A stretch of 48,485 nucleotides of DNA from Tindallia magadiensis (GTDB lineage: Bacteria > Bacillota > Clostridia > Peptostreptococcales > Tindalliaceae), in NCBI RefSeq assembly GCF_900113635.1, contig NZ_FOQA01000003.1, forward strand, positions 1 to 48,485. Reading direction: 5' to 3'. A program made the translations under genes and the position numbers. Positions 2,051 to 43,996 of the stretch are shown piece after piece; positions within the stretch are counted from its first letter, which is position 1, and every line of letters begins with the position of its first letter. The notes beneath the pieces were generated by a model. It ran no database searches. It saw only the letters and a list, made by a program, of their open reading frames with translations, and was not told the origin of the DNA.

Positions 2051-2080
2051 AGCATTGCCGGCCGGCAATGCTTTTTCTGT
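2051..2080 (+). terminator. Riboswitch expression-platform intrinsic terminator
   Basis: Perfect 11-bp inverted repeat agcattgccgg/ccggcaatgct followed by a T-run ctttttctgtcttttt. Confidence 0.7.
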
Positions 2081-2117
2081 CTTTTTGTTATCATCACGAT
2101 CTGAAAGGAGGAAATCA

Positions 2118-3424: not shown

Positions 3425-3425
3425 A

Positions 3426-17484: not shown

Positions 17485-17485
17485 A

Positions 17486-24257: not shown

Positions 24258-25538
24258 ATGAGACATTTTGAAACAACTTTGGAATTTTCGCGGGAAATGG
24301 ATAAAAAGGATTTGTTAAAATCCTATAAAGAAAGGTTTTACATGGAAAAAGGGGTTATTTATATGGATGGAAACTCCTGTGGTCTTTGTTCGATAGATGC
24401 GGAAGTTTACGTGATGAAAGCCTTGAAAGACTGGAAAAAATTTGGAATTGATCTTTGGACACATCCGGAAGCCAACTATTTTCTATACCAAGATAAGTTA
24501 GCTAAATTAATGGCTCCCCTCATTAACGCCAAGCCGGAAGAGGTAACTATCTGTACCAATACTACTATTAACATTCATAAAGCCCTAGCTACCTTTTATC
24601 AGCCTACTCCTCAGCGGTATAAAATCATTGTGGACGACCTGAACTTTCCCACGGATAAGTACGCCGTGGATAGTTTTGTTAAGCTGAAAGGCTTAGATCC
24701 GGAAACCGCTGTAAAAGTAGTTAAAAGCCGGGATGGCAAACAGATCTTTGAAGAAGATATGATTGAGGCCATGACCGAAGATGTAGCACTGATCCTACTG
24801 CCTTCGGTCCTTTACCGAAGTGCCTATTTAACAGATATGCAAAAAATTGCCGATGCTGCCAGGGAGAGAGGCATTTATGTCGGTTTTGATTTAAGTCACT
24901 CCATCGGCAGTGTTCCTCACGATTTTGAATCCCTAAACTGTGATTTCGCCGTATGGTGCAATTACAAATACGTAAACGGCGGTCCCGGAGCTATTGCTGG
25001 ACTCTATATCAACGAAAAGCACTTTTCAAAAGGACCCGGCTTGGCCGGATGGCAGGGTAACAACAAAGCAACTCAGTTTGACCTGAAACAAAGCTTTGAA
25101 CCGGCAGAATATGCTGGTGGATGGCAAACAGGAACTCAGCCTATTTTGAGCATGGCTCCCATCGAAGGCAGCCTTCGCATGTTCCAGGAGGCCGGCATCC
25201 ACAACATTCGTGAAAAATCCTTGAAGCTGACAGCATACATGATGTACTTAATTGATGAAAAGCTAAAAAAATTCGGGTTTTCTTATGGCAACCCAGCAGA
25301 AGATCAACGACGGGGCGGCCATGTGGCTTTGGAGCATGAGGAAGCCATTCGTATTAACAAAGCCATGAAGGATCGAAAAATCATTCCAGACTTTCGCTAT
25401 CCCAATATCATTAGACTAGCACCAGTAGCCTTTTATGTGTCCTTTGAGGACGTATATCGGATGGTGGAAATTATTGAAGACATTATGGAAACCAAAGCTT
25501 ATGAAGACTATGACGGCAGCCGGGGTACTGTCGCGTAA
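24258..25538 (+). CDS. kynU: Kynureninase
   Basis: GVIYMDGNSCG, DFAVWCNYKYVNGGPG, GWQTGTQPILS and RRGGHVALEH match kynureninase signature blocks (compare GVIYLDGNSLG and CTYKYLNGGPG). Confidence 0.85.
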   Translation: MRHFETTLEFSREMDKKDLLKSYKERFYMEKGVIYMDGNSCGLCSIDAEVYVMKALKDWKKFGIDLWTHPEANYFLYQDKLAKLMAPLINAKPEEVTICTNTTINIHKALATFYQPTPQRYKIIVDDLNFPTDKYAVDSFVKLKGLDPETAVKVVKSRDGKQIFEEDMIEAMTEDVALILLPSVLYRSAYLTDMQKIADAARERGIYVGFDLSHSIGSVPHDFESLNCDFAVWCNYKYVNGGPGAIAGLYINEKHFSKGPGLAGWQGNNKATQFDLKQSFEPAEYAGGWQTGTQPILSMAPIEGSLRMFQEAGIHNIREKSLKLTAYMMYLIDEKLKKFGFSYGNPAEDQRRGGHVALEHEEAIRINKAMKDRKIIPDFRYPNIIRLAPVAFYVSFEDVYRMVEIIEDIMETKAYEDYDGSRGTVA

Positions 25539-25692: not shown

Positions 25693-28600
25693 ATGAAATT
25701 CACAAAAAGAAAAATTCAAAGCATTTCGGTTTTATTGGTCTTATTTTTATTATTGCCTATGTTTGGGCAAATCCTGCCGGAAGGATGGTTGAAATATTTT
25801 CCGGATGGGATGACGGTGACGGCGGATACTTATGGGAGTGGATCGGTGACGGATGCGGTATATGGAGATCAATTTATAACGGATATACGTTTTACAAAGC
25901 CGGGTGGTCCAGATGATCTCAGCGAAAACCTAGATCCCTTAGAAGAGCCGGTTTCAAAAGATGCAGAGTTCCGAATTACGTACTATTTTGAAATACCGAA
26001 CACAATGGATGTTAAGGAAGGGGAATCTTTTACGATAACCATTCCTGAAGAGATCCAGAAAATCAACAATCAGTTTGAGGCACCTTTAAATGACGATAAT
26101 GGAAACACCATTGCAAATGCCACCTATTACACTGATAATCGGGTAGAAATAATCTTTACGGACTATGTAGAGAACGAAGGCCTGGGCGATATTAGTGGAT
26201 ATTTTTGGATTCAAAGGAGATTTGAGGAGTCTGCAATAGGCAACGAAGGAGAAACAGACATTATTTTTGATCTGAATGGAGAGAGTACCTTTGTTGTAAC
26301 CGTTGTATTTGAAACGATGGATGAAGAAACTCATATGGGGGTCAATAAAAGCAATAGTTACAGTGCTGAGAATAACGAAATAACTTGGATCGTAACAATT
26401 ACCCCTAGCACTTCGCCAACATCTAATTTACCTATAGAAAATGTGGTGTTCAAGGACGTTATTGAAGATAATCAGAATTTTGTTGATGACTCACTAACGA
26501 TAACATCAAATATTGCTGGTTGGATTTCAGATGATAAAGTAACGGTTATCTTGCCTGATACAGGGAATAACAACGAGTTGAAAATTGAGTTTAATGAAGC
26601 GGTCAACACAGAAACGGACGAAGAATACACCATTACTTTTAAAACAAATCCGGACATTTCTGGCTTTGCGGCGGAAGGAGATAGCGTTGCTTTTGAGAAC
26701 ACAGCTGTAGTAGAGTATCGGGATGTTCATAGTGGAGAAGTTGAAAGTGAAGAAGATAGCTCTACCAGAAATATTACAGCTAACTTTATCCAAAAATTCG
26801 GCAGTTATAATCAAGCTGAAAAACGGATAGACTGGACGATCACTATTAATAATAATTATTTTGAAATCCCTGCAGGTGCAGAGATTATCGATGAAATACC
26901 GGAAGGACTAACGCTACTTGAAAATAGTATTAGACTAGATGATGGGGGTCCTTTAACCATTAATAATGACGACGGACCATTAAAGTATAATCAAGATGGT
27001 TTGGATCCCGGAGTAGAGGGAATTTTATCCTATACTTTTGAAGAGGCATTGACTGGACCACATACATTGACCTACTCCACAGAGGTAACGGATGAAGATG
27101 CCTACACTTCCAACGATGCGACTACTTTTACCAATAAAGCCAGTCTGGAAGGAACTGGATTGATTGAGGCTCCCTCTATCGGTGTAGGTGTTGATGCTAC
27201 TACCAATATCATTCGAAAAACCAGCCCAGGATTCGATGCGGCCAATCAAGAAATAACATGGCAGATAGTAGTCAATGAGAACGAAATAGAAATTGAAAAC
27301 CCAGTAGTGACAGACACCATACCGGATGGCTTGGTATATGTGGAGAATTCTTTTGCTGTAAATGGTGATCAAACCAATACTGGATTTGATTACGATGAGG
27401 CAACCAATACATTCACTTATGATTTTGAAGGCATTAAGGATGGGGATCATAAGATTCATACAACCTATACATTAACCTTTAAAACAAGGGCAGTAAATAA
27501 TACGGATTACGCCGTGAACAAAACAACACCTTTTATCAATAGGGCTGTGCTGACAGGGGAAAACATCGAAACAACAGAAGATACAGCTACCCGTAACTAT
27601 ATTAGTCGTGTGATACAGAAAGATGGAGTGGATTATGACTATGTAGAAAAAATTGTTACATGGAGAATTCGAGTCAATCATAACGAGATGGAAATGACCA
27701 ATGCTCGTGTCGAAGATGTAATCGAACCTGGCTTTGCTTTCATACCAGGGTCTGTCACGATTAATAACGCTCCAGCTACTGAAAGGTCAGGTGTTGGAGA
27801 AGGTTATGAATATGATGAAGACACAAAAAAACTGACTTATCATTTTCCGGGCACCATTAACACATTACAGGAAATAACTTTCCAAACTGAAATAACAGAT
27901 CTATCCATTTTCGAAACCAATGGACCAATAAATGCTGAAAATACGGCAACATTGTTTGGCGACGAAATCCCTAGTGATAATGTGTCAGATACTGGCACCC
28001 AGGAGATAGTTCGTACTCTGGTGGAGAAAATCGGGAATTATGAAAATGGAGACTCCTATATCGAGTGGGATGTAGTAGTCAATAGAGACCAGTTGGAAAT
28101 AAGCAATCCAGTGTTAACAGATGAACTGCAGGAAGGTCTGGAATTGGATACGGCAACCATTCAGCTGAACCACTTGACTATTGCATCTGATGGAAGCTAT
28201 ACCATAGGAGATGAAGTGCCGCTGGAGGCAGAAAACATAGAGTACAATCCGGGAACTAGAGAGTTTACGTTTCGTTTTAATCAGGACATCGACAGTGCGT
28301 ATCTGCTGAGGTTTCAAACGGATATCGCCAGCGGGTATCATAATGCCACTTTCAGCAACGAAATTCAATTTGCTGGCAGCCATGGCGAAGAAAGCAGCAC
28401 ATCTTCCAGTATTCAAGTGGAAGTACAGACTGTTGGCGGAGGTGCGTCTGGAAGCAACGGAAGTATTACCGTTACAAAAATAGATGAGAATAACACATCT
28501 ATTAAACTGCAAGGGGCTGTTTTTCAGCTCTATGACCGTTTTGGTATGGAGTTAGGAGAAAGCAAGGAAACAGATGTAGAAGGCGAAGTACTGTTTGACA

Positions 28601-30369
28601 GCCTGAAATTCGACATTCCTTATACCGTGAAAGAAGTAACGCCACCGGAAGGTTATTATATGGCAGATGGTCAGGGAGAGTATACCTTCACTCTTACAAG
28701 CGGCGATAAAGACATCACCTATACCTTTGAAAATTCCAGAATTACAGGTAATATTCAATTTCAAAAAGTAGATGCAGACACGGAAAACTCCGTTGAAGGC
28801 GCTGTATTTAATCTTTATGAAAGCTCGGATGAAAACACGGTTATCGCTACAGCAACCAGTGATGAGGATGGACTTGTCACTTTTGAAAATGTGGGCTATG
28901 GAAACTATGTGATTAAAGAAGATGCACCAGCAACAGGCTACTTAATAACAGAAGAAACATTGGAAGCCAATGTTTCTGAAAAAGACGTGACTGTATTTGC
29001 TGGTCCTGCTGGCAATGAAGCTGAAAGATTTAAGCTGGAAAATCAGGTCATGAAGGGCAGCTTACAGATGACGAAAGTGGATGCGGAAGATAACAACCGC
29101 AAGCTAGAAGGAGCTACTTTCGAGCTGTTCAGAAAAAGCGGTGACATTTTCGTAAGCACAGGAATAACCGTGATGACGGATGAAAATGGGTTTGCTGAAA
29201 TAACAGATTTACCTTATGGTGACTACATTCTGCGAGAAATAACAGCGCCGGATGGATATTACCTGAGCAGTGAAGATCAGAACTTCAAAATAGAGAGCCA
29301 TGAAGAAATTGTTGTGATTGAAGTGGAGAACGACAAAATTCCGGAAGGAAATTTAGTCATCAACAAGCTGGATGCATTAAGCAAGATCGGAATTCCTGGA
29401 GTGGAATTTGAAGTGTACAACCAGGATGGGGATCTAGTAACCACCATCACCACCGATGGAGATGGTATGGCAGAAGCAGAAAGCCTATTTGTAGGAACAG
29501 AAGGTGAGTTCGCCACTTATACCCTTAAAGAAAGCGTAACGCCTGATGGATATCATCCTTCGGAAGAAGATAAAATCATTACTATTGAAGAAGGTACTGG
29601 CAATGCTTTTACCATCGAAAACCAACCCTACCGAGGACTGGAAATCATCAAAATTGATAGTAGAGATGAAACAAGAAGGCTGGAAGGTGCTATTTTCAGT
29701 CTCTATAGAAAAAATGGCATCAATGGTGATCCGATCAGAGAAGAAAAAATAACCGACGAGAACGGAAAATTACAGTTTGAATCACTGGAGTTTGGAGAGT
29801 ATCTCTTAAGAGAAACACAGGCTCCTTCCGGGTATCGGCTGAATTCAGAAGTTATGGAAATTCTTATAGATGAAGAAAGTCCTGGAACAATCAGTATCGA
29901 ATGGCCCAACACCCGCCGACCTACTGGCGGTGGCGGTGGAGGTACACCTCAAACTCCTGAGCCAGAAACACCAGGAGAAGAAACTGAGGGACAGCCAGAA
30001 ACACCCAGTAATCCTCCTACGGATGGAACTATTGAGATTCCAGAGGCAGATATACCGCTGGTAATTGTTCCACCAGAAAACGGTACCGTAGAAATCGATG
30101 AAGATGGTAATTGGACTTACACACCAGATCCGGGATATAACGGAAAAGATCGTTTTACAGTTCGAATTATTCGTGAGGATGGTACAGAAGAAGAGGTTGT
30201 TATAGAAATTGATCCAGATCCCATCCCAGAAGGAGGCATATTGATTCCAGATGTTCCGGAATTGCCGCAAACTGGTGAATCTCACCCAGCTAAAATGATA
30301 ATACTAGGCCTTCTACTGAGTCTTATAGGAATAATACTAAATCAAAAATTTGGGAGAAAAAGAGTATAA
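25693..30369 (+). CDS. LPXTG-anchored giant surface adhesin with repeated N-terminal Ig-like domains and about five CnaB-type (SpaA isopeptide) repeats
   Basis: Signal peptide. Four to five approximately 150-aa repeats (I[TED]W.I.VN...E[IM]...). CnaB-like repeats (ITVTKIDENN...GAVFQLYD; IQFQKVDADT...GAVFNLYE; LQMTKVDAEDN...GATFELFR; LVINKLDALS...GVEFEVYN; LEIIKIDSRDE...GAIFSLYR). Pro/Gly/Thr linker. DEDGNWTYTPDPGYNGKDRFTV Ig-like/VCBS-type motif. LPQTGE + hydrophobic segment + KRV tail. Confidence 0.85.
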   Translation: MKFTKRKIQSISVLLVLFLLLPMFGQILPEGWLKYFPDGMTVTADTYGSGSVTDAVYGDQFITDIRFTKPGGPDDLSENLDPLEEPVSKDAEFRITYYFEIPNTMDVKEGESFTITIPEEIQKINNQFEAPLNDDNGNTIANATYYTDNRVEIIFTDYVENEGLGDISGYFWIQRRFEESAIGNEGETDIIFDLNGESTFVVTVVFETMDEETHMGVNKSNSYSAENNEITWIVTITPSTSPTSNLPIENVVFKDVIEDNQNFVDDSLTITSNIAGWISDDKVTVILPDTGNNNELKIEFNEAVNTETDEEYTITFKTNPDISGFAAEGDSVAFENTAVVEYRDVHSGEVESEEDSSTRNITANFIQKFGSYNQAEKRIDWTITINNNYFEIPAGAEIIDEIPEGLTLLENSIRLDDGGPLTINNDDGPLKYNQDGLDPGVEGILSYTFEEALTGPHTLTYSTEVTDEDAYTSNDATTFTNKASLEGTGLIEAPSIGVGVDATTNIIRKTSPGFDAANQEITWQIVVNENEIEIENPVVTDTIPDGLVYVENSFAVNGDQTNTGFDYDEATNTFTYDFEGIKDGDHKIHTTYTLTFKTRAVNNTDYAVNKTTPFINRAVLTGENIETTEDTATRNYISRVIQKDGVDYDYVEKIVTWRIRVNHNEMEMTNARVEDVIEPGFAFIPGSVTINNAPATERSGVGEGYEYDEDTKKLTYHFPGTINTLQEITFQTEITDLSIFETNGPINAENTATLFGDEIPSDNVSDTGTQEIVRTLVEKIGNYENGDSYIEWDVVVNRDQLEISNPVLTDELQEGLELDTATIQLNHLTIASDGSYTIGDEVPLEAENIEYNPGTREFTFRFNQDIDSAYLLRFQTDIASGYHNATFSNEIQFAGSHGEESSTSSSIQVEVQTVGGGASGSNGSITVTKIDENNTSIKLQGAVFQLYDRFGMELGESKETDVEGEVLFDSLKFDIPYTVKEVTPPEGYYMADGQGEYTFTLTSGDKDITYTFENSRITGNIQFQKVDADTENSVEGAVFNLYESSDENTVIATATSDEDGLVTFENVGYGNYVIKEDAPATGYLITEETLEANVSEKDVTVFAGPAGNEAERFKLENQVMKGSLQMTKVDAEDNNRKLEGATFELFRKSGDIFVSTGITVMTDENGFAEITDLPYGDYILREITAPDGYYLSSEDQNFKIESHEEIVVIEVENDKIPEGNLVINKLDALSKIGIPGVEFEVYNQDGDLVTTITTDGDGMAEAESLFVGTEGEFATYTLKESVTPDGYHPSEEDKIITIEEGTGNAFTIENQPYRGLEIIKIDSRDETRRLEGAIFSLYRKNGINGDPIREEKITDENGKLQFESLEFGEYLLRETQAPSGYRLNSEVMEILIDEESPGTISIEWPNTRRPTGGGGGGTPQTPEPETPGEETEGQPETPSNPPTDGTIEIPEADIPLVIVPPENGTVEIDEDGNWTYTPDPGYNGKDRFTVRIIREDGTEEEVVIEIDPDPIPEGGILIPDVPELPQTGESHPAKMIILGLLLSLIGIILNQKFGRKRV

Positions 30370-30691: not shown

Positions 30692-32068
<1,377 letters not shown>

Positions 32069-34967: not shown

Positions 34968-36755
34968 ATGAAAATAAGCATTGTATCTGGTTTCTTAGGT
35001 GCTGGAAAAACCACATTTCTGACAAAAATACTGCCTCTTGTGCAAGAGAAAGTTGGTATTATTGAAAATGAAGTTGGCGATGTCAGCATTGATGGATATG
35101 CATTTGAAAAAGATTTTCGAGTGACGGAGGTTTTTGGTGGCTGTATTTGCTGCACCGTTGCTAAAGACCTAAAAAAGGCTGTTTTGTACCTAATGGAGGA
35201 AGAAAAAGTAGAACATATCTGGATAGAACCCTCTGGCATTGCTCATTTATCGGCTATTCTAAAAGCATTAAGCGATATAGAAACACAGTTAGAGATATCC
35301 TTTGACTATCAGCCAGCAATCGTTTTAGTAGATGTCAAGGATTTTAATGATTACCATCAGTCGATGGGAAGTTTTTATACCGATCAAATTCAACACGCTG
35401 ATATCATTCTGCTAAGTCGGTTTTGCGACGAAAAACCAGAAGAGATGGATCGAATCATTGGAAAACTTCGTCAACATAATCCAGAAGCCTCCATTCTTCA
35501 GGAAGAGTGGTTAACCATGGAAAATGTCTTATTGGAAACCTTGCTAAAGGAAAATCAACTAAAGACAAAGAAGACAGCCTTATCCCTGGACAGTGGGCAG
35601 GAAAACGTGGACAGTTCCGATACGCTGGAAAAGACCACTCTTAAAAAAGCAAAAGCTTTTACTCAAGAAGCCTTACAAGTGTTGGAATCGAAGTTTCTTG
35701 AGAATGAATGGGGGAATGTGTGCCGAGCAAAAGGTCACTTAAATACACCAGAGGGAAAAACCATTCATTTTAACTATACGCCTGGACGTTTTTGCTGGGA
35801 ACTTCAAGATGCATTTATCCCTTCGGCACTTACCGTAATTGGTAAGTCCTTGGAAAAGGAAAAAATTCATGAGTATTTCTACGAGAAAAAAATCCATGAT
35901 TTTCCCTGTCAAAACAATGATATGGCCGGCCTTCCAGAAATTGTGATCAATGAATTGAACCTTGCTTTTCCCCAGGCTTATCAGGAAAGTGAAGCGATGA
36001 TGCAAATTGCCTTATCCTTAAAAAAATATGCAGGAAGCCCTCATTGCGAACTCCCTTTTTGCCATACCGTGGAAGGAGAAGCCCTTGGAGCGAGAATTCG
36101 ATATGGAGATGAAACGGTTGGGCCACGCAGTGGAGAAGCCGTATGCCAAAGTGCAGAAGATCTGCTGGCTTTACCGCCCATGAATTTTACTCAAGGTAGA
36201 ATATCAGCACTGCTACAGGCTTGTAATAAATTGACAGAACAGGGAGAAAAAGTTGTTCTGTATCTGTCAGGCCCACTCACTATTTTGAATACCCTTATGG
36301 ATGCTCGGGTGTTGTTTAAGGAAATAAAACGCAAACCGGACCAGATGAATCGTGTTTTCGACTTTTTAAGAGGAGAAACGCTTCGATTTATCAAAGAAGC
36401 TCAGAAAAATGGAGTGACTCTTTTTAGTTACGGAGATTCCGTTGGCGGTGCGAATATTATTGGTCCTCATTTGTCAGAAAAAATAACAACCCAATACACC
36501 TATCCATTGATGAAAACCATCGATACTCAAATGTTATCAGAAAACTCAATGATGATCCTATGCCCTAAAACTGCCTATGCCTTGGTAGGCACTGGATATG
36601 CTCACTGGGAAGATTTTTTTCTATCAGAACCAATGCATTACAGTGAGGGATGTTTGGAGGCGGTATCAAGCTTTAATTTTGCAGGTCAAATGTGCATTAA
36701 AAACAGATCTTTTTACTTAGAAAATAAAATACTAAAAGGACTTCGTCTAGAATAA
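34968..36755 (+). CDS. Fusion: CobW/COG0523 G3E GTPase (with CobW_C) + degenerate URO-D-like (MtaA/CmuA family) domain
   Basis: Walker A GFLGAGKTT. Metal-binding GCICCT (CxCC). Switch/base motifs. CobW_C-like CRAKGHLN...FCWE. Residues from about 300 to 595 align collinearly with the three downstream URO-D-family methyltransferases (PFCHTVEGEALGA...YGD; VTLFSYGDSVGG...P.L...YTYPLMKTI). The HxC zinc-ligand motif, which is HICG in all three paralogs, is ILCP here. Confidence 0.7.
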   Translation: MKISIVSGFLGAGKTTFLTKILPLVQEKVGIIENEVGDVSIDGYAFEKDFRVTEVFGGCICCTVAKDLKKAVLYLMEEEKVEHIWIEPSGIAHLSAILKALSDIETQLEISFDYQPAIVLVDVKDFNDYHQSMGSFYTDQIQHADIILLSRFCDEKPEEMDRIIGKLRQHNPEASILQEEWLTMENVLLETLLKENQLKTKKTALSLDSGQENVDSSDTLEKTTLKKAKAFTQEALQVLESKFLENEWGNVCRAKGHLNTPEGKTIHFNYTPGRFCWELQDAFIPSALTVIGKSLEKEKIHEYFYEKKIHDFPCQNNDMAGLPEIVINELNLAFPQAYQESEAMMQIALSLKKYAGSPHCELPFCHTVEGEALGARIRYGDETVGPRSGEAVCQSAEDLLALPPMNFTQGRISALLQACNKLTEQGEKVVLYLSGPLTILNTLMDARVLFKEIKRKPDQMNRVFDFLRGETLRFIKEAQKNGVTLFSYGDSVGGANIIGPHLSEKITTQYTYPLMKTIDTQMLSENSMMILCPKTAYALVGTGYAHWEDFFLSEPMHYSEGCLEAVSSFNFAGQMCIKNRSFYLENKILKGLRLE

Positions 36756-36822
36756 TTCTTGAGTCGAACAATAAAAAGCAAAGAGAGTAAGAAATAAAGA
36801 AAACAAGGGAAGGGGTTTTTGG

Positions 36823-37893
36823 ATGCACAAAAATGATTCGATGACACCGAATGAACGCTTAGCTGCTTTTATGACAGGTAAGCCGATGGATCGAAGCTTG
36901 GCTATTCCGGTCGTTTGTTCTATGTCAGGGCAGGCGATGGGAATCAGTCATAAAGAAAAACGGAGCTCAGCAGAAAAAGAAGCAGCAGCACAAATAGCTT
37001 GCTACGAACGGTTTGGAAATGATCTGGCTATTGTAGATTATGGACTTCATGGCGTAGGTATGGCTTTGGGAAGCAAAATGAATGATCCGGAAGATGACGT
37101 TCCAGCTATTACAAAATACGCATTAGAGAATTTGGATCAGGCAGATTCTTTGGACATGAGCCGGTTATCGTCAGTGAATGACTTAAAACTGGAGATGCAT
37201 TTGAAGACAGCGAAAATACTTATTAAAGAGATTGGCCATGAAGTTCCTACGGGAGTATTGATATCTGGGCCTTTTACAGCGGCGGCCAGCCTGTATCCTA
37301 TCGAAAAATTACTTCGCTCCACACGAAAATCACCTGAAAAACTTCATCGATTGATCCATTTTTGTAACGAAGGGCTGAAGCAAATATATAAAGAGTTTAT
37401 TGAAGCTGGTGTGTTGATTCTTATGTGTGATCCAATTGCTTCAGGGACAATTTTGCATCGCCAACAATATTTGGATTTCGTACTGCCCTATACAGTAGAT
37501 TTAATTGAAACAATCCATGAGGCGGGTGGTATGGTCTGCTATCATATTTGTGGGGATACGACGGCTATTATTGGTGATATGGCTGGTTCCGGATGTGACA
37601 TGCTAAGTGTGGATAATCGGGTAGACCTTGAGCATACTAAAAAAGTAGCCGGCGAGATCCTGCCAATTCTAGGAAATGTAGATCCTGTGGAAGTAATGCA
37701 TCTTGGTTCGACGGAGGATGTAGACAATGCTGTGAAAGCATGCTTTCAAAAGGCTTATGACGCTAAATGCGGGTATATACTAGCTTCCGGCTGTGATTTA
37801 AATGGAAGCCTTCCTTTAGAAAATATCGATCAATTTATGGAATCTGCCCGTAAGTATGGGAAATGGCCTTTGGATCCTGAAAACTTTCGTTAA
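36823..37893 (+). CDS. URO-D-family methylcobamide methyltransferase (MtaA/CmuA family) paralog 1
   Basis: MTPNERLAAF N-terminus. Zinc motif YHICGD plus a downstream SGCD. RBS gggaagggg. Confidence 0.8.
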   Translation: MHKNDSMTPNERLAAFMTGKPMDRSLAIPVVCSMSGQAMGISHKEKRSSAEKEAAAQIACYERFGNDLAIVDYGLHGVGMALGSKMNDPEDDVPAITKYALENLDQADSLDMSRLSSVNDLKLEMHLKTAKILIKEIGHEVPTGVLISGPFTAAASLYPIEKLLRSTRKSPEKLHRLIHFCNEGLKQIYKEFIEAGVLILMCDPIASGTILHRQQYLDFVLPYTVDLIETIHEAGGMVCYHICGDTTAIIGDMAGSGCDMLSVDNRVDLEHTKKVAGEILPILGNVDPVEVMHLGSTEDVDNAVKACFQKAYDAKCGYILASGCDLNGSLPLENIDQFMESARKYGKWPLDPENFR

Positions 37894-37912
37894 TATTTTA
37901 AGCCCTGGGAGG

Positions 37913-38590
37913 ATGAAAAAAGTGAGTAATCATATAGAATTATCAAAAGAAGCATTTCTAAAAAAATTATCAGATCATGTGGTGGAAATGGAAGAGGAAG
38001 AAGTAATAGAGACCTGTGAAGCTTATTTGGAAGCAGGATTTCCGGCCTTTGATGCCATTATGGAAGGCTTGGTAGATGGGATGAACCGAGCCAGTATCCT
38101 TTTTGATGAAGAAGAATATTTTGTGACAGACATATTACTTTGTTCCGATGCTATGTACGAAGGCTTAGAAGTTTTACGGCCGCATTTACCGGAAGAAACG
38201 GCCAATCAGATAAAGCATAAGGGTGTTATTGGAGTAGTGGAAGGTGATACCCATGATATTGGAAAAAACCTAGTGAAGATCATGCTGGAAACAGCCGGTT
38301 TTGATATGATAGATTTAGGGAGAGATGTTCCACTGCAAAAGTTTGTAGAAACAGCAAAAGAAGAAGGAGCAACCTTTATCTGTATGTCTACCCTGATGAC
38401 AACCACGATGCAGGGAATGAAAAGGGTGATAGAACTATTAGAAGAAGCTGGCATTCGAGATCAGGTAAAAGTGATTGTAGGAGGAGGTCCGCTGTCTAAA
38501 AAGTTTGCAGACAGTATCGGTGCGGATGGGTATTCCACGAATGCGGTAGAAGCGGTTAAACTGATGAAAAGGCTTATTCAGGTAGCCTAA
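37913..38590 (+). CDS. B12-binding corrinoid protein (MtaC/MtbC-like)
   Basis: N-terminal helical cap followed by a Rossmann B12-binding domain with GDTHDIGKNLV (DxHxxG) and the ...CMSTLMTTT S-x-L region. Alternative GTG start at 37922 is better spaced from the GGGAGG RBS. Confidence 0.85.
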   Translation: MKKVSNHIELSKEAFLKKLSDHVVEMEEEEVIETCEAYLEAGFPAFDAIMEGLVDGMNRASILFDEEEYFVTDILLCSDAMYEGLEVLRPHLPEETANQIKHKGVIGVVEGDTHDIGKNLVKIMLETAGFDMIDLGRDVPLQKFVETAKEEGATFICMSTLMTTTMQGMKRVIELLEEAGIRDQVKVIVGGGPLSKKFADSIGADGYSTNAVEAVKLMKRLIQVA

Positions 38591-38624
38591 AGATAAGGAA
38601 GTAGTTTAGAGAGGAGGCAGGACC

Positions 38625-39641
38625 GTGACACCTAAGAGTCGGTTAGAAGCCGTTTTATCCGGGGAGCAGACAGACAGACCTCCCTGTATTTGTCCAGGTG
38701 GCATGATGAACCTGGTAGTGAGTGAATTGTTGGAAAAAAGTAATATTCATTTTATAGAGGCTCATCATAATGCGACGGTAATGGCAGAGATTGCCGATGC
38801 GGTATACAGAGAAAACTGCTTTGAAAACTATGGCGTTCCCTTTTGCATGACCGTCGAAGCGGAAGAAATGGGAGCCTTAGTAGATTATGGTGACAATCAT
38901 TGTGAACCTCATGTTACTCACTATGTGATTCAATCCGTTGATGACTGGCAATTACTTCAAACCCCAACAACAAAAGGCGGCAGGTCGAAAGTGGTACTCG
39001 ATGCGTTACAAATCTTAAAAGAAAAAAATCCGGAGGTGCCGGTGATCGGAAATATTACTGGCCCTATTAGTACGGCCAGCTCGGTGATGGAGCCGGTGGT
39101 ATTTTATAAGGAACTGCGTAAAAAAAATCGCAAAGCTCATGAAATGATGGCCTTTGTAACAGAAAAACTGATTCAATTTGCCGTTCAACAGGTGGAGGCC
39201 GGGGCAGAGGTGATTGCGATTTCAGATCCCAGCGGTACGGGAGAAATCATGGGCCCAAAACTCTTTGAAGAATTTACGGTTCCTTATCTGAATCAATTGG
39301 TGGAGGTGATTCGAGATAAAGGAGCTGTCAGTATTGTTCATATTTGTGGACAGATGAAACAAGTATACCCTCAAATAGACCTGGTCAAAAGTGATGTGCT
39401 TAGTTTTGACTCTGTGGTGGCGATGAAGGATGCAAAGAAAAATTTGCCTGAAAGATTGATTATGGGCAATGTCAGCACATTTTCTATTGAATTTGCAACA
39501 CCGGATAAAGTGATGAGCTTAACACAAAGCTGCCTTCGCTCCGGAGCTGATATCATCTCGCCGGCTTGTGGTCTTGGCATGAATTCGCCTCTGGAAAATG
39601 TTCAGGCCATGCTGAAAAGCCTTAAAGAAAGTGGGCGATAG
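38625..39641 (+). CDS. URO-D-family methyltransferase (MtaA/CmuA family) paralog 2
   Basis: MTPKSRLEAV N-terminus. VHICGQ and ISPACG zinc ligands. GTG start with RBS gaggagg. Confidence 0.8.
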   Translation: MTPKSRLEAVLSGEQTDRPPCICPGGMMNLVVSELLEKSNIHFIEAHHNATVMAEIADAVYRENCFENYGVPFCMTVEAEEMGALVDYGDNHCEPHVTHYVIQSVDDWQLLQTPTTKGGRSKVVLDALQILKEKNPEVPVIGNITGPISTASSVMEPVVFYKELRKKNRKAHEMMAFVTEKLIQFAVQQVEAGAEVIAISDPSGTGEIMGPKLFEEFTVPYLNQLVEVIRDKGAVSIVHICGQMKQVYPQIDLVKSDVLSFDSVVAMKDAKKNLPERLIMGNVSTFSIEFATPDKVMSLTQSCLRSGADIISPACGLGMNSPLENVQAMLKSLKESGR

Positions 39642-39642
39642 A

Positions 39643-41445
39643 ATGCAAGAAATTTTAATTCAAAATCTTAATAAGCGTATTAAAATGGATCCTCATAAAA
39701 ATCTAATGACACAGCTGATGGAACATCAGATCTTTATCGATCATCCCTGCAATGGAAAAGGAACCTGTAGAAAATGTCGTGTACGGATTGTGAAAGGTGA
39801 CGTGACGACGTTAACGGAAACAGAAAAGCAACATCTGTCCTCCGGAGAATTGGCAGAAGGCATACGATTAGCCTGCTTAATCTACCCTCTGACGGAAATG
39901 ACGGTGGAAACCTTACAGAAAGAAGCCGCTTGCCAGGTGCTAACGCAGGGGGCATTACCGGAATTTGAATATCACCCGTCAATAGAAAAAAAGAAAATAC
40001 AGTTGCAACGACCAAGTCTGGAAAATCAGACGTCTATGGAAGAGAGCTTGCTGAAGGCAGCAAAGGCACAAAGTGTTGACTGGGAACTGTTGCATCCAAT
40101 GCCGCCTTATCAGAAAATGCTAACCACCGTATGCCGTTATGGTCATTGCTACCAGTTGGAAGAAGGCGATACAGCGGACCAACTTTATGGCATTGCCGTG
40201 GATATAGGAACGACAACGATCGCTGCTTCTTTGGTTAATATAAGAACCGGTGCAGAACTGGGCGTCACTTCCATGATTAACCCTCAGCATTGCTATGGCT
40301 CTGATGTGTTGACTCGTATTACCTATCAAATTGAAAATCCGGAAACAGCCGTACAGGCAATGCAAAAAACGCTTGTTGGAAAGCTGGAGGAAGCGATGAT
40401 CGATCTTTGTCAAACACTTCAGATCAATCCGGCCCATGTATATGAAATGACAGTGGCAGCGAATACCACCATGCTTCATACATTGTTGGGAATCAGTGCA
40501 GAGTCTATTGGTATTTCGCCCTATGCACCTGCCTTTATAACGTCAAAAGATCTGAAGGCAGCAGCCATTGGATTCCAGAAAATGCCAGCAATGAATATTT
40601 ATTGCCTACCCTCTGTGTCGGCCTATATAGGAGCGGACATTGTTGCAGGGGTTTTTTCATGTCAATTACAACAGCGAAAAGAAACCAGGTTACTAATTGA
40701 TATTGGTACCAATGGTGAAATGGTCTTATCTCATGAAGGAAAACTAAGTGCCTGTTCCTGTGCCGCCGGACCGGCCTTGGAGGGGATGAACATCAGCAAT
40801 GGAATGAGAGCGGCTAAAGGAGCCATTGAGGATATTGAAATAGATCGTTCAGAGATAAAATTAAAAGTCATTGAAAATGCAGAGCCGGTGGGTCTTTGCG
40901 GCAGTGGTATTTTGGCGGCTACGAAAGAATTATTGCGGAGTGGTATGGTAAAGAAAAACGGTGCATTTATCAAGAAAACAGAGTTGGAAGAAGATCATCC
41001 TTTATACCAACGACTTCATATCAATGGAAAGAAACGAGAGTTTTTGATAGCCGAAGGAAATCAGCCCATTTATATTACCCAATCGGATATTCGGCAGGTT
41101 CAATTAGCCAAAGGAGCTCTATTATCAGGCTTCTATGCTCTTTTGGATCAGGCGGGAATTACCATTGATCAATTAGACGAAATCATTGTAGCCGGACAGT
41201 TCGGAGCACATTTGTCAGCGGATCATTTAGTCGAAACTGGCATTTTGCCCAGAGAAACCAAGGAAAAAATCAGCTATGCTGGAAACACATCTAAGACCGG
41301 AGCTTACATGGCCTTGATGGCTGTTGATGCACGAAAGACAATGGAAAACCTTGCTCAAGAAATTCAATATAAAGAACTAAGCACACATCCTGATTATGAA
41401 AAACTTTTTCGAGATTCTCTAGAATTTCCAAAGTTAGAAGATTAG
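39643..41445 (+). CDS. Reductive activator of corrinoid protein (RACo): 2Fe-2S ferredoxin + ASKHA ATPase
   Basis: N-terminal CNGKGTCRKCRV...C plant-type 2Fe-2S. ASKHA phosphate-binding motifs DIGTTTIAASL and DIGTNGEMVL. Size about 600 aa. Start alternatives 39631 (GTG) or 39643 (ATG). Confidence 0.8.
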   Translation: MQEILIQNLNKRIKMDPHKNLMTQLMEHQIFIDHPCNGKGTCRKCRVRIVKGDVTTLTETEKQHLSSGELAEGIRLACLIYPLTEMTVETLQKEAACQVLTQGALPEFEYHPSIEKKKIQLQRPSLENQTSMEESLLKAAKAQSVDWELLHPMPPYQKMLTTVCRYGHCYQLEEGDTADQLYGIAVDIGTTTIAASLVNIRTGAELGVTSMINPQHCYGSDVLTRITYQIENPETAVQAMQKTLVGKLEEAMIDLCQTLQINPAHVYEMTVAANTTMLHTLLGISAESIGISPYAPAFITSKDLKAAAIGFQKMPAMNIYCLPSVSAYIGADIVAGVFSCQLQQRKETRLLIDIGTNGEMVLSHEGKLSACSCAAGPALEGMNISNGMRAAKGAIEDIEIDRSEIKLKVIENAEPVGLCGSGILAATKELLRSGMVKKNGAFIKKTELEEDHPLYQRLHINGKKREFLIAEGNQPIYITQSDIRQVQLAKGALLSGFYALLDQAGITIDQLDEIIVAGQFGAHLSADHLVETGILPRETKEKISYAGNTSKTGAYMALMAVDARKTMENLAQEIQYKELSTHPDYEKLFRDSLEFPKLED

Positions 41446-41587
41446 AAGAAGAGGAAGGACTACACCTATTACGTTTTTCGATCAGGAAGGAAGATTTGAT
41501 TCAAAATATTAATTTAACGAAGCGGAAAACCTATGCTAGAATAAGTACTTGGTGGAAGGACAACCCTCAACGGAAAGGAGAGGAATC

Positions 41588-42640
41588 ATGAGAGAGGAAA
41601 TGACACCAAAGGAACGAGTTGCTGCCTTTGGCAGGGGTGAAGCGATAGACCGCGTGATTACTGTTCCCGATATGGGTGTGACCATGACGCCTTATTTAAG
41701 TATTAATGCCGATGATTATTATCACTCGGCTTCTTTAATGGCGGAATTAGAAATTCAGTTATTTAAGCGATTACGCCACGATTCTGTCAGCATCTCTACC
41801 AGCCTTCGAGGGGTGGCAGAAGCGATGGGTGCTCAGGTAGGATACCCGAAAAATAATATTTCGTTCTTAAAAGCGCCAGCGATCCAATCAGCAGAAGAAA
41901 TTCATCGCTTAAAGCCGGCGGATCCACTAAAAGATGGGAAATTGCCGGTGCTGATTAAGGCTATTGAACTAACGCAAAAGGCGATAGGTCATGAAGTAGA
42001 TGTATCGGCGGCGATGTCTGGTCCCATCAGTGTCGCTGCTTCGATTATTGGTACCGAAACCTTATTAAGGTGGATGGTAAAAAAACCGGAAGCTTTGCAT
42101 GAAGTCATGGAAGTAGTGACGGAATCGAATAATCGATACATACGAGAAGTAGCGAAACGTGGGGTGTCTATAGGATTTGCCGATCCTGTTTCTTCAACAA
42201 GTTTGATGAGTCCTAAACAGTTCAGAGCCTTTTCTCTTCCTTATTTGAAAAAGAATATCGATGAGATAAAAAACAGCACAGGCAGTGCTCCAGGAATCCA
42301 TATTTGTGGAAAAAGCAAACGGATCTGGGAAGATGTAGTGCAGGCAGGAATTTCAAATTTTAGCATTGATAATGTAGAAGATCTGGAAGAAGCGAAGGAA
42401 ATAATGGGGAAAGAGGTTATTATTACTGGCAACCTTCCGCCGGTGGAGGTGCTTCACTTTGGTTCAAAAGAGAAGATTTTTGAGTCCGTAAAGGAATGCA
42501 TCCGAAAAGGTCACGATTCGCCGAAAGGATATATTTTAAGCACGGGATGCCAGATACCCATGAATACAGCCATTGAAAAAATAGAGATGTTTATGGAAGC
42601 AGCCTGGCATTATGGGAAATATCCTATTCAAACATTTTAG
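41588..42640 (+). CDS. URO-D-family methyltransferase (MtaA/CmuA family) paralog 3
   Basis: MREEMTPKERVAAF N-terminus. GIHICGK and STGCQ zinc ligands. RBS aaaggagagg with ATG 41588. The track ORF 41549 extends upstream of the RBS. Confidence 0.8.
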   Translation: MREEMTPKERVAAFGRGEAIDRVITVPDMGVTMTPYLSINADDYYHSASLMAELEIQLFKRLRHDSVSISTSLRGVAEAMGAQVGYPKNNISFLKAPAIQSAEEIHRLKPADPLKDGKLPVLIKAIELTQKAIGHEVDVSAAMSGPISVAASIIGTETLLRWMVKKPEALHEVMEVVTESNNRYIREVAKRGVSIGFADPVSSTSLMSPKQFRAFSLPYLKKNIDEIKNSTGSAPGIHICGKSKRIWEDVVQAGISNFSIDNVEDLEEAKEIMGKEVIITGNLPPVEVLHFGSKEKIFESVKECIRKGHDSPKGYILSTGCQIPMNTAIEKIEMFMEAAWHYGKYPIQTF

Positions 42641-42652
42641 GAGGACATTTAG

Positions 42653-43996
42653 ATGAAAAACGACATGAATAAAGGAAGTTTTGGTGCATTGGTACCATTA
42701 ATTGTATTTGTACTTGTATACTTGAGTGCAGGAATTATCTTGCAAATCTCCGGAGTACCCATGGCTTTTTATCAGTTCCCGGCACCTATTGCAGCGGCTA
42801 TTGGTGTTGTAGTAGCCTTTTTTATCATGAAAGGTTCTTTAGATGAAAAGTTTGACCTTTTCGTAAAAGGCTGTGGTAGTGAAAATATCATTATTATGTG
42901 TCTGATTTATCTGCTGGCAGGTGCTTTTTCTTCTGTAGCAGAAGCTATGGGAGGCGTAGCTTCAACGGTCAACTTAGGCTTGACACTGATTCCCGTTAAT
43001 TTTATTGTAGCCGGTGTCTTTGTGATCTCCGCTTTTATTGGAATTTCTACCGGGACATCCATGGGAACCGTTGTGGCTGTTGGACCTATCGCTGTATCTC
43101 TGGCAGAAAAGGGTGGTCTGAATTTGCCGATGGTCCTGGGTGCTCTGATTGGTGGAGCGATGTTAGGGGATAATTTATCGATTATTTCCGACACCACCAT
43201 TGCGGCAACCAGAACCCAAGGAGTTTCTATGAGGGATAAGTTTAGAGCAAACGCAGGGTTTGTTTTCCCGGCAGCGATGGTTACCTTAGTGGTCATGCTA
43301 GTGCTGGGAAGACCGGATCAATTACCGGAAGCGGAACAGCACCACTATCACCTGATAAAAATTGTTCCGTATGTATTTGTATTAGGAGCGGCCTTGAAAG
43401 GAATCAATGTTTTTGCTGTGCTCACCGGTGGCATTGTGATTGCTGGAGGAATTGGATTACTGTATGGAGACTTTACAGGATTAAGTTTTGTACAGACAAC
43501 CTATGAGGGATTCACAGGAATGATTGATATTTTTCTTCTTTCGCTGCTAACTGGTGGTCTGGCTCATATGGTTTCGGAAAAAGGCGGCCTGGAATGGATT
43601 ATTTACAATATTCGTTCTAAAATTAAAGGGAAAAAAAGTGCCGAATTAGGTATTGGGTGCCTGGCAGGTCTTACCAATATGGCGACAGCTAATAATACGG
43701 TAGCTATTTTAATTAGTGGTAAACTGGCGAAAGAAATATCCAACGAGTTTGATGTGGATCCTCGGCGGTCAGCTTCTTTGCTGGATGTATGCGCTTGTAC
43801 GGTACAAGGTTTAATCCCCTATGGAGCACAGTTGTTGGTGGTAGCCAGCTTTACAGATGGACTGATAAGCCCCGTTGAGATTATTCCTTATAACTGGTAT
43901 TTTGCCATTCTTTTATTCTTTATCGGGCTGTCTATTGTAACACCTTTTGGAAAAGGCTATATTCGCAAAGTACCTTTTCAGCGAGAAAACGCCTAA
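42653..43996 (+). CDS. NhaC-family Na+/H+ antiporter-like transporter
   Basis: 447-aa polytopic membrane protein with NhaC-family architecture. RBS aggagg. Last gene of the methyltransferase operon. Confidence 0.6.
   Translation: MKNDMNKGSFGALVPLIVFVLVYLSAGIILQISGVPMAFYQFPAPIAAAIGVVVAFFIMKGSLDEKFDLFVKGCGSENIIIMCLIYLLAGAFSSVAEAMGGVASTVNLGLTLIPVNFIVAGVFVISAFIGISTGTSMGTVVAVGPIAVSLAEKGGLNLPMVLGALIGGAMLGDNLSIISDTTIAATRTQGVSMRDKFRANAGFVFPAAMVTLVVMLVLGRPDQLPEAEQHHYHLIKIVPYVFVLGAALKGINVFAVLTGGIVIAGGIGLLYGDFTGLSFVQTTYEGFTGMIDIFLLSLLTGGLAHMVSEKGGLEWIIYNIRSKIKGKKSAELGIGCLAGLTNMATANNTVAILISGKLAKEISNEFDVDPRRSASLLDVCACTVQGLIPYGAQLLVVASFTDGLISPVEIIPYNWYFAILLFFIGLSIVTPFGKGYIRKVPFQRENA

Follow-up and report, generated by a model that had tools for sequence, protein, structure and literature searches.

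Where does the methyl group go in a corrinoid methyltransferase operon that has no pterin-binding methyltransferase (MT-II)? The question is raised by a block of genes at positions 34968–43996 (+ strand) of the 48.5-kb stretch of Tindallia magadiensis DNA analysed here (the window). A 100% match to the protein WP_093370925.1 assigns the DNA to this species. The ORF check and the Pfam/NCBIfam profile searches found seven of seven ORFs, and the seven-gene description in the initial annotation agrees with them in both ORFs and domains. The first ORF encodes a COG0523 (G3E) GTPase (34968–35879; cobW, E = 5e-34; CobW_C, E = 2e-5) fused to a URO-D domain, Mlp1 (35880–36755; E = 4e-17). It is followed by an Mlp2-type UroD methyltransferase of 356 aa (36823–37893; full-length URO-D, E = 5e-73) and by a corrinoid protein (37913–38590; ORF opening at 37856) with B12-binding_2 and B12-binding domains and the DxHxxG motif DTHDIG (38246–38263). 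Next come an Mlp3-type UroD methyltransferase of 338 aa (38625–39641; full-length URO-D, E = 2e-80) and a RACE/RACo activase (39643–41445; ORF opening at 39631) with Fer2, Raco_middle and RACo_C_ter domains. The activase is of the bacterial ATP-dependent reductive type, with an N-terminal 2Fe-2S ferredoxin domain (CNGKGTCRKC, 39748–39777). The last two genes encode an accessory UroD methyltransferase of 350 aa, U6 (41588–42640; ORF opening at 41549; full-length URO-D, E = 6e-84), and an NhaC-superfamily transporter of 447 aa (42653–43996; Na_H_antiporter). Computed from RBS-supported starts (37913, 39643 and 41588 for the corrinoid protein, RACE and U6), the gaps are 67, ~19, 34, ~1, 142 and 12 bp in gene order. 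A promoter-like site lies in the 142-bp gap (41514–41542), with a scan score not above chance. The URO-D half of the fusion protein, a complete ortholog of a separate 289-aa family, brings the UroD-type domains of the operon to four.

Is this a new type of gene cluster? Novelty has no support: both this kind of cluster and the puzzle of its missing folate methylase were already published in 2023, under the name of mlp gene clusters (MGC) of type 1, for C. ljungdahlii and over 100 genera (Kountz & Balskus, bioRxiv preprint, PMC10418091). T. magadiensis Z-7934 is in the authors' supplementary list of encoders, with SelABCD "Yes" and an Mlp3 outside the non-selenium clade. As published, a type 1 MGC has several MtaA-like UroD proteins, a corrinoid protein, a RACE activase and no H4folate methylase, and the family's proposed substrates are methylated compounds of selenium or sulfur. 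ClMlp2 catalyses methyl transfer from methylcobalamin to selenide, with a low reported kcat (PMC10418091). Kountz & Balskus also placed in the mlp family SdmABC of M. voltae and M. maripaludis (Niess & Klein 2004; PMC11097638), which likewise consists of a corrinoid protein and UroD-type methyltransferases. Methanococcus needs the sdm genes to use dimethylselenide and induces them when starved of selenium (PMC11097638). In the archaeal hosts, coenzyme M is the obvious compound to accept the methyl group; no equivalent is known in Tindallia.

Compared with the C. ljungdahlii ERI-2 cluster (L044), the identities are 45% for Mlp1, 72% for Mlp2, 74% for the corrinoid protein, 60% for Mlp3 and 51% for RACE; the Mlp names were assigned via synteny and identity to this strain rather than via the reference proteins of DSM 13528. 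The Tindallia operon shares with the type 1 MGC the matching order of Mlp1, Mlp2, corrinoid protein, Mlp3 and Ram/RACE, the lack of an H4folate methylase, and the His-Cys-Cys residues of Mlp2 and Mlp3. It differs in the fusion of Mlp1 to a COG0523 GTPase, a gene that PMC10418091 does not discuss, and in having an extra Mlp2-lineage paralog and an NhaC-type transporter after RACE. The order GTPase-Mlp1-Mlp2-corrinoid protein-Mlp3-RACE was found in 26 of the 80 genomes, C. ljungdahlii ERI-2, C. carboxidivorans and C. drakei among them. C. botulinum has the same eight parts, with the extra paralog and the transporter placed in another order, and a MetN-type ABC ATPase follows them.

The profile search detected no Pterin_bind, MtrH or MttB domain in the non-overlapping ORFs of at least 120 aa of the whole window, and none was found near the orthologous operon in a relative that is 88% identical (L001). 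The earlier remark that the block lacks a pterin-binding MT-II is supported. Pterin_bind and MtrH were also not found around the orthologous clusters L083 and L086. These results argue against reading the block as an ordinary operon for methylotrophic demethylation that supplies the Wood-Ljungdahl pathway. On that reading, the paralogs would serve as MT-I enzymes with methoxylated aromatics, methanol or similar compounds as substrates, and H4folate would receive the methyl group from a pterin-binding MT-II encoded at another place in the genome or from an Mlp acting as a new type of folate methylase. Odm/Vdm/Cdm/Mto systems do have a corrinoid protein, RACE and UroD-type enzymes as their standard parts (PMC13222342), and Kountz & Balskus left open that some Mlp might be an undiscovered H4folate methylase (PMC10418091). 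OdmABCD/VdmABD, MtvABC, CdmBCA and MtgABC share with the Tindallia block the corrinoid protein and the ATP-dependent activase, and the Odm/Vdm/Cdm systems share also a UroD-type MT-I. Unlike the Tindallia block, however, all of them carry a pterin-binding MT-II.

The zinc sites point in the same direction. All three paralogs keep His-Cys-Cys ligands: YHICGD (37540–37557) and ASGCDL (37783–37800) in the Mlp2-type protein, VHICGQ (39336–39353) and PACGLG (39561–39578) in the Mlp3-type protein, and IHICGK (42296–42313) and STGCQI (42539–42556) in U6. These ligands are invariant in 38 (Mlp2-type), 74 and 58 orthologs of the three paralogs. In contrast, the MT-I enzymes of the bacterial three-component demethylases belong to another UroD clade, whose zinc sites are changed or missing, and the O-demethylases carry carboxylates in place of the Cys ligands (PMC10418091). 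The lone match to CdmB, a structure of the O-demethylase clade, was marginal (E = 2e-4) and came from one paralog. Moreover, C. sporogenes and H. thermocellum have orthologous clusters but no H4folate methylase at all (PMC10418091). On the loci covered, I consider a conventional demethylase operon of this kind unlikely.

What, then, do the paralogs do? The closest solved structure to the UroD proteins of the operon is M. mazei MtaA, and the nearest paralog to archaeal MtaA is the Mlp3-type protein (4AY7, E = 3e-44, 31% identity; NF004889, 398 bits against a cut-off of 244), in line with the MtaA-like character first ascribed to the paralogs. The scores lie below the NCBIfam equivalog cut-offs for MtaA (210 vs 400 bits) and MtbA (202 vs 600 bits). 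The UroD TIM-barrel fold and the His-Cys-Cys zinc site are common to Methanosarcina MtaA/MtbA/MtsA, but the Tindallia operon has no MtaB/MtbB-type MT-I and its bacterial host has no CoM. Mlp3 is single-copy in 74 of the 80 related clusters; together with its proximity to MtaA and its retained His-Cys-Cys, this is compatible with a role in methylating thiols or selenols. The copy number of the Mlp2 lineage varies from 0 to 4 per cluster, which is compatible with donor-specific MT-I enzymes that have one corrinoid protein in common. U6 is a member of this lineage judging from its sequence similarity (33% identity and 208 bits to the Mlp2-type paralog, 27% identity to Mlp3). The protein at 36823–37893 may be a donor-specific demethylase, and that at 38625–39641 may be a methyl-corrinoid:thiol/selenol methyltransferase. 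Both alternatives of the initial annotation survive in part: a thiol acceptor in the case of Mlp3, and a set of MT-I enzymes on one corrinoid protein in the case of the Mlp2 lineage.

U6 is 68–74% identical to proteins of C. botulinum, C. sporogenes, C. drakei, Tissierella and others, with one nearer relative at 95%. An NhaC-type transporter adjoins its orthologs in 12 of 15 assessable loci; the pair recurs in C. botulinum and stands isolated in Tissierella. The transporter of the window is 57–67% identical to the U6-paired transporters, which form a tighter subgroup. It appears from sequence to be related to MetT-type transporters; MetT is an S-box-regulated putative methionine transporter of the same NhaC superfamily (PMC2940859). 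The connection to MetT consists of 47% identity to one riboswitch-controlled homolog, located behind a SAM riboswitch beside a related cluster in C. sulfidigenes (L029). In contrast to MetT, the transporter gene of the window has no riboswitch and belongs to the subgroup travelling with U6, and no SAM riboswitch was found upstream of the U6-NhaC pairs. The pairing and the resemblance to MetT favour the earlier suggestion of an imported substrate.

The OpuA/OpuC-type ABC system (16834–19291), once described as lying beside the operon, is separated from it by 15.7 kb and about eleven unrelated genes. The tpl gene is present as claimed (TIGR02618, 834 bits against a cut-off of 720.7), and no connection between it and the operon was found. 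A link of the operon to OpuC, tpl or quaternary amines is without support. The window contains no sel, grd or sulfur-assimilation genes and by itself gives no selenium or sulfur tie. No riboswitch was found at the operon. A cobalamin riboswitch directly precedes the GTPase-led cluster in at least seven Rfam-confirmed Lachnospiraceae loci (~14–16 by a B12-box scan). Its position ahead of the whole cluster is not predicted by a role in selenium or sulfur salvage.

The only unusual trait of the operon is the fusion of the GTPase to a methyltransferase-like protein. The GTPase half has Walker A (GFLGAGKTT, 34989–35015), Walker B (IEPSG, 35223–35237) and the CxCC metal motif (CICC, 35142–35153), followed by a CobW_C domain. 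LLSR (35406–35423) stands in place of the NKxD base-specificity motif, which is (I/F)LS across the 48 cluster-associated orthologs checked. The AF2 model of this half matches YjiA (1NIJ/4IXM) in Foldseek. The junction is in frame and has no linker (EKIHEYF-YE-KKIHDFPC). Aligned across 99% of its length, the Mlp1 half shares 45–52% identity with 289-aa proteins that stand alone. Its zinc-binding His is replaced by Leu/Ile (ILCPKT, 36555–36572), while seven Cys are invariant across the family. Mlp1 is an MtaA-like barrel (best Foldseek match M. mazei MtaA 4AY7/4AY8, E = 7e-11) that is short at the C-terminus; it aligns to the Mlp3 family with an hhalign probability of 99.8% until LCPK meets HICG. 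With neither the His ligand nor the C-terminal third of a canonical barrel, Mlp1 is possibly not a methyltransferase at all. The fusion noted at first was real, but Mlp1 is a separate family without the canonical zinc site rather than a mere fragment or a further methyltransferase paralog. In 40 of the 80 genomes a COG0523 GTPase gene is the immediate upstream neighbour of Mlp1, frequently with 4-bp overlaps. Elsewhere it is a separate gene, and among 1.84 billion representative proteins the joining is confined to the Tindallia lineage.

It is a known theme that G3E GTPases are fused to B12 enzymes or act as their partners, as in IcmF and MeaB. IcmF offers an analogy, as a G3E chaperone fused to part of a corrinoid-dependent enzyme system, although it belongs to the MeaB branch rather than to COG0523, and its fusion partner binds AdoCbl while Mlp1 has no B12-binding domain. 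Might the operon then serve corrinoid trafficking or processing? The MtaA-like enzymes would strip the methyl group of imported methyl-corrinoids onto a thiol or selenide in a CblC-like dealkylation, with GTPase::Mlp1 as a B12 or cobalt chaperone, like MeaB in IcmF, and the corrinoid protein as a carrier. The Lachnospiraceae riboswitches, a control typical of B12 supply genes, would fit, as would the free methylcobalamin used as methyl donor in the sole reported in vitro Mlp activity (PMC10418091). I regard this as quite improbable: the window operon lacks a riboswitch, the GTPase has the CxCC of zinc/cobalt-type COG0523 proteins and not MeaB features, Methanococcus genetics tie the homologs to dimethylselenide (PMC11097638), and the variable, transporter-linked Mlp2 paralogs suit varied small-molecule donors better than one cofactor. 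Clustering of COG0523 with corrinoid methyltransferases has been on record since 2009 (Haas et al., PMC2770081). The CxCC and CobW_C domain and the neighbouring methyltransferase genes resemble COG0523 subfamily 13, co-localised in Methanosarcina, Methanococcus maripaludis and C. botulinum (PMC2770081). The difference is that the cluster-associated subfamily has (I/F)LS for NKxD and that the Tindallia protein is fused to Mlp1.

T. magadiensis is an anaerobe from an alkaline soda lake, and this habitat, the His-Cys-Cys sites and the similarity to soluble CoM methyltransferases could suggest energy-yielding methylotrophy on methylated sulfur compounds (methanethiol, DMS or methylmercaptopropionate), as with Methanosarcina MtsA/MtpA, the methyl group being oxidised or spent on acetogenesis. 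This is very improbable, as the cluster and its surroundings offer no path from the corrinoid protein to H4folate or to an energy-conserving step, the family is found in many non-methylotrophic amino-acid fermenters and gut Lachnospiraceae, the kcat of ClMlp2 is low (PMC10418091), and expression follows selenium demand (PMC11097638).

The operon is probably a canonical type 1 MGC, the bacterial counterpart of Methanococcus sdm, serving as a self-contained, folate-independent corrinoid methyl relay for methylated selenium and/or sulfur compounds. In this relay, the ATP-dependent RACE would bring the corrinoid protein to Co(I). The Mlp2-lineage enzymes (36823–37893 and 41588–42640) would demethylate CH3-Se-R or CH3-S-R donors and release the selenol or thiol; the latter enzyme may use a Met/SeMet-like compound brought in by the MetT-like NhaC transporter. 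Mlp3 would move the methyl group from CH3-Co(III) onto a thiol acceptor, e.g. sulfide or homocysteine. The COG0523 GTPase, in a 1:1 complex with Mlp1, would most likely load or guard a metal site in this non-canonical Mlp3-like barrel. The core of the operon is already known, and what is new is the GTPase::Mlp1 fusion, a minor variant. The most likely function of the operon is folate-independent methyl transfer among S-methyl and Se-methyl compounds.

It was found by ORF listing and translation that seven co-directional genes lie within 34968-43996, and Pfam and NCBIfam searches with each of the seven bore out all the gene assignments of the initial annotation. The first gene (34968-36755) encodes a 595-aa fusion of cobW, CobW_C and URO-D domains. 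Three full-length URO-D proteins are encoded at 36823-37893 (356 aa), 38625-39641 (338 aa) and 41588-42640 (350 aa, or 363 aa from the opening of the ORF at 41549). They are interspersed with a corrinoid protein starting at 37913 (B12-binding_2 and B12-binding domains, motif DTHDIG) and an activase starting at 39643 (Fer2, Raco_middle and RACo_C_ter domains), and an NhaC-family transporter at 42653-43996 is the last gene. With RBS-supported starts, the intergenic gaps are 67, about 19, 34, about 1, 142 and 12 bp. No Rfam match to a riboswitch or leader was obtained 5′ of the operon at E ≤ 1, and a promoter/terminator scan yielded promoter candidates no better than chance and no clear terminator downstream of 43996.

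The operon is a catalogued member of the published family of mlp gene clusters (MGCs) of type 1. An MGC is defined by two or three MtaA-like UroD proteins (Mlp1, Mlp2 and Mlp3) together with a corrinoid protein and an activase of the bacterial Ram/RACE kind; MGCs are known from more than 100 anaerobic genera, and an H4folate methylase is conspicuously missing from them (Kountz and Balskus 2023; PMC10418091). Supplement 3 of that paper includes Tindallia magadiensis Z-7934 (GCF_900113635.1, SelABCD 'Yes'), and labels matching the window protein accessions were not found in its tree files. The methylcobalamin:selenide methyl transfer is catalysed by ClMlp2, and the authors proposed methyl-selenium recycling for most MGCs and methionine salvage for a minority (PMC10418091). 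In Methanococcus, the use of dimethylselenide depends on the sdm homologs, which are induced when cells are starved of selenium (PMC11097638). The initial annotation was correct in what it observed, a corrinoid methyltransferase operon with three URO-D paralogs and no MtrH-type partner; its interpretation was right in spirit but overestimated the novelty, since the cluster type, the missing folate methylase and the species were all in the 2023 preprint.

I fetched 80 genome loci via a family of stand-alone 289-aa Mlp1 proteins and annotated them with the proteins of the window. The commonest gene order, GTPase-Mlp1-U2-CP-U4-RACE (U2 and U4 being the URO-D genes on either side of the corrinoid protein gene, CP), was found at 26 loci, including those of Clostridium ljungdahlii ERI-2, C. 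carboxidivorans and C. drakei; the window shares this order, as does the published cluster of C. ljungdahlii. Identity to the ERI-2 proteins is 45% for Mlp1, 72% for 36823-37893, 74% for the corrinoid protein, 60% for 38625-39641 and 51% for RACE. Since the 72% and 60% values are to ERI-2 genes at the same positions, 36823-37893 is Mlp2 and 38625-39641 is Mlp3, the names following from synteny with the order published for DSM 13528 and the comparison proteins being those of ERI-2 rather than the DSM 13528 references. By identity to the ERI-2 locus, the operon therefore has both an Mlp2 and an Mlp3, which are distinct UroD subclades, and by Pfam and the same comparison it has a corrinoid protein co-located with a bacterial-type Ram/RACE. 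It is also without an H4folate methyltransferase: no Pterin_bind, MtrH or MttB domain was detected when all non-overlapping ORFs of 120 aa or more in the window were scanned with Pfam, and precomputed Pfam lists contained no pterin-binding/MtrH-like methyltransferase around three orthologous clusters (L001, which is 88% identical, L083 from C. botulinum, and L086). The published topology was reproduced by pairwise scores, in which Mlp1 is closest to Mlp3, Mlp3 is closest to MtaA (31%), and Mlp2 is farthest from MtaA.

Among the paralogs, 38625-39641 comes nearest to the MtaA and MtbA equivalogs; it passes the broad subfamily model NF004889 (398 against 244 bits), but its scores of 210 and 202 bits, the best in the window, do not reach the cut-offs of NF040654 (400 bits) and NF041608 (600 bits), and the remaining paralogs score lower still on both models. 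O-demethylase/Cdm systems combine an MT-I of the Odm/Vdm/Mtv/Cdm UroD clade with a pterin-binding MT-II. The operon has neither, although 41549-42640 gave the sole PDB match to CdmB, a structure of the O-demethylase clade, at a marginal E of 2.4e-4. MttB-type quaternary-amine systems place an MttB-superfamily MT-I beside the corrinoid protein, whereas the Pfam scans of the window's ORFs of 120 aa or more gave no MttB-family match. A reading of 38625-39641 as a folate methylase, for which 4AY7 had been taken for the folate-binding MT-II of Desulfitobacterium hafniense, was dropped because 4AY7 is the Methanosarcina mazei MtaA (supplement of PMC10418091 and PDB titles).

His-Cys-Cys zinc sites are present in Mlps as in S-methyltransferases, and Mlp1 exceptions have also been reported (PMC10418091). 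Alignment with M. mazei MtaA revealed that the three full-length paralogs keep the three ligands, which are invariant in 38, 74 and 58 orthologs of the respective proteins. Mlp1 does not have the complete site: it keeps only the middle Cys, in an LCPKT motif, and in place of the His 65 of 79 sequences have Leu, while the window protein has Ile. A profile-profile alignment of the Mlp1 and Mlp3 families (probability 99.8%) ends exactly at the LCPKT motif, past which the Mlp1 C-terminus is short, contains Cys and is unalignable to the Mlp3 family. Seven Cys residues are invariant in the Mlp1 family. Mlp3 is single-copy in 74 of the 80 loci, and the Mlp2 lineage varies from zero to four copies. 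This pattern fits a single fixed enzyme on the acceptor side and a changing set of enzymes on the donor side that have one corrinoid protein in common.

The fusion protein matches WP_093370925.1 of Tindallia magadiensis at 100% identity. The 88%-identical relative also has the operon, with the same neighbours upstream of it, and a third assembly has a copy of the fusion at 90% identity or more; thus, the fusion is not an assembly artefact. Its C-terminal 290 aa align end to end with the stand-alone 289-aa proteins, a sharply defined family, at 45-52% identity. At 40 of the 80 loci, Mlp1 is directly preceded by the ORF of a COG0523 GTPase, often with a 4-bp overlap or with an 8-22 bp spacer carrying an RBS, and about ten further loci have the GTPase at another place in the cluster. 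In Tindallia, the stop codon and the spacer have been lost and the halves are joined without a linker. No other protein spanning both halves was detected when 1.84 billion cluster representatives were searched exhaustively with phmmer. A second, different Mlp1 fusion was found on a single metagenomic contig of 7.9 kb (L095 2657-4420), which encodes a 587-aa protein consisting of a metallo-beta-lactamase-fold domain and an Mlp1-like domain (40% identity). That contig, on which two neighbouring genes are unannotated, yielded no identifiable gene for a corrinoid protein or RACE. The nearest GTPase-only match examined from the first homology search (P0038) has an unrelated genomic context, so GTPase similarity alone is no guide to cluster membership.

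The GTPase half has the features of COG0523: GFLGAGKTT (Walker A), CICC (CxCC), IEPSG (Walker B) and a CobW_C match (E 2e-5). The 48 cluster-associated orthologs conserve Walker A, IENEFGD, GCICC and IEPSG. The guanine-specificity motif NKxD is missing, being replaced by ILLSRF in the window (35406-35423) and (I/F)LS in the consensus of the 48 orthologs, which puts in question the nucleotide used by the mlp-associated GTPases. A selenocysteine in the GTPase, raised by a weak match to the NCBIfam model 'CobW-related selenoprotein' (72 against 180 bits), was rejected because tblastn across 52 loci revealed no in-frame TGA; the short GTPase ORF of C. ljungdahlii ERI-2 is merely truncated. An AF2 model was confident for both halves, and Foldseek matched them best to MtaA (4AY7/4AY8) and the COG0523 protein YjiA in the PDB. 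No confident inter-domain arrangement was obtained (pTM 0.53, junction region pLDDT below 50). A COG0523 subfamily is known to be co-localised with corrinoid methyltransferase genes, including those of C. botulinum (Haas et al. 2009; PMC2770081). I infer that the GTPase and Mlp1 may form a 1:1 complex, and the simplest reading of its putative role is metal loading of Mlp1 by the GTPase.

A bolder reading, which I consider improbable, is that the fusion is a chaperone-client (Rosetta-stone) fusion in which Mlp1 would not be a methyltransferase but a cysteine-rich, Mlp3-derived docking or metal-handling module, the pair loading or protecting a relay cofactor (zinc, cobalt/corrinoid or released selenide). 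A cofactor-trafficking reading stays alive at low probability because of cobalamin-riboswitch control in Lachnospiraceae, itself unexplained. In these genomes, a cobalamin riboswitch (RF00174, 82-109 bits) lies directly 5′ of the COG0523 GTPase gene heading the cluster (L038 7023-7200, L041 7022-7199, L047 8759-8942, L048 7335-7511, L059 8718-8901, L064 7233-7453 and L077 7079-7254). A crude scan found a B12 box at 14 or more of the 80 loci; a cobalamin riboswitch was not found in the window, and the mlp paper makes no mention of one (PMC10418091). If this bolder reading were true, mlp clusters would, together with these riboswitches, serve to traffic a cofactor or selenium and would have a G3E chaperone of their own, a role for which no proposal was found in the searchable literature. 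Separately, the upstream regions of Clostridium-type clusters share an element, ATTAGACTG ... TA(C/T)AAT, 60-170 nt before the GTPase start (L008, L016, L022, L024, L027, L028, L029, L031, L032 and L052). The element resembles a conserved promoter, perhaps combined with an operator; its 9-mer does not occur in the window.

The third full-length paralog, U6 (41588-42640), belongs to the Mlp2 lineage, as its 33% identity (208 bits) to Mlp2 indicates. Proteins sharing 68-74% identity with it occur in C. botulinum, C. sporogenes, C. drakei, Tissierella and others. Of 15 assessable loci, 12 have an NhaC-family gene next to this paralog; some of the 12 are near-duplicates, and in Tissierella the two genes form an isolated pair; a metagenome scan for this paralog yielded only eight loci. 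The transporter shares 57-67% identity with the homologs that accompany U6 elsewhere and 47% with a homolog in C. sulfidigenes (L029 5598-6905), which lies about 2 kb upstream of the mlp cluster and has a SAM riboswitch immediately upstream (L029 5365-5474, 90.6 bits). Such a riboswitch with an NhaC gene is the signature of MetT, a putative methionine transporter of the NhaC superfamily (PMC2940859). Because the window transporter resembles this riboswitch-led homolog, it points to a Met- or SeMet-like compound as the methyl donor that may be imported. No riboswitch was found upstream of the window transporter or of the other U6-NhaC pairs. All eight components of the window are present in the C. 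botulinum cluster, and 3′ of that cluster lies a gene for an ABC ATPase that carries a NIL domain (L083 18824-19053), as in MetN-type methionine importers.

The operon had been described as sitting beside an OpuC-type quaternary-amine uptake system and an orphan tpl. An OpuA-type/OpuAC ABC system was found at 16834-19291, 15.7 kb from the operon, with genes for a hybrid kinase, a GGDEF protein, a MerR regulator, kynureninase, a 1558-aa adhesin, tpl, an HDOD protein and ThrE in between. The tpl gene at 30695-32068 was confirmed as tyrosine phenol-lyase (TIGR02618, 834 bits), and kynureninase lies at 24258-25538 (TIGR01814, 355 bits). A link of the operon to the transporter, tpl or kynureninase was rejected because of the distance and because a conserved association exists in one close relative only. 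Kynureninase and tyrosine phenol-lyase flank the adhesin, a SpaA/collagen-binding surface protein (25693-30369); in the 88%-identical relative, both enzyme genes are likewise upstream of the operon, but the adhesin is not there. Elsewhere in the window, the thiamine salvage genes thiW-thiD-thiM-thiE form an operon (2055-4911) with a TPP riboswitch (1919-2030, 70.4 bits) ahead of it. On the minus strand at 5762-8000, an N6/N4 DNA methylase (6942-8000) and, after it, a 397-aa protein without a Pfam match may make up a restriction-modification pair.

The additions made here to the mlp family are modest: a GTPase::Mlp1 fusion specific to one lineage, the conserved position of the GTPase next to Mlp1, and the module of U6 and transporter. 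What is new from this locus is a natural fusion physically tying a COG0523 GTPase to Mlp1, so that a concrete hypothesis can be framed for two parts of the cluster that had lacked an explanation; its hosts include C. botulinum, gas-fermenting clostridia and gut Lachnospiraceae. Because one paralog is repeatedly paired with a MetT-like transporter, candidate substrates can be named, namely Met, SeMet and S- or Se-methyl amino acids. If the family recycles methyl-selenium or methyl-sulfur compounds, it would be relevant to selenium and sulfur cycling in anoxic habitats.
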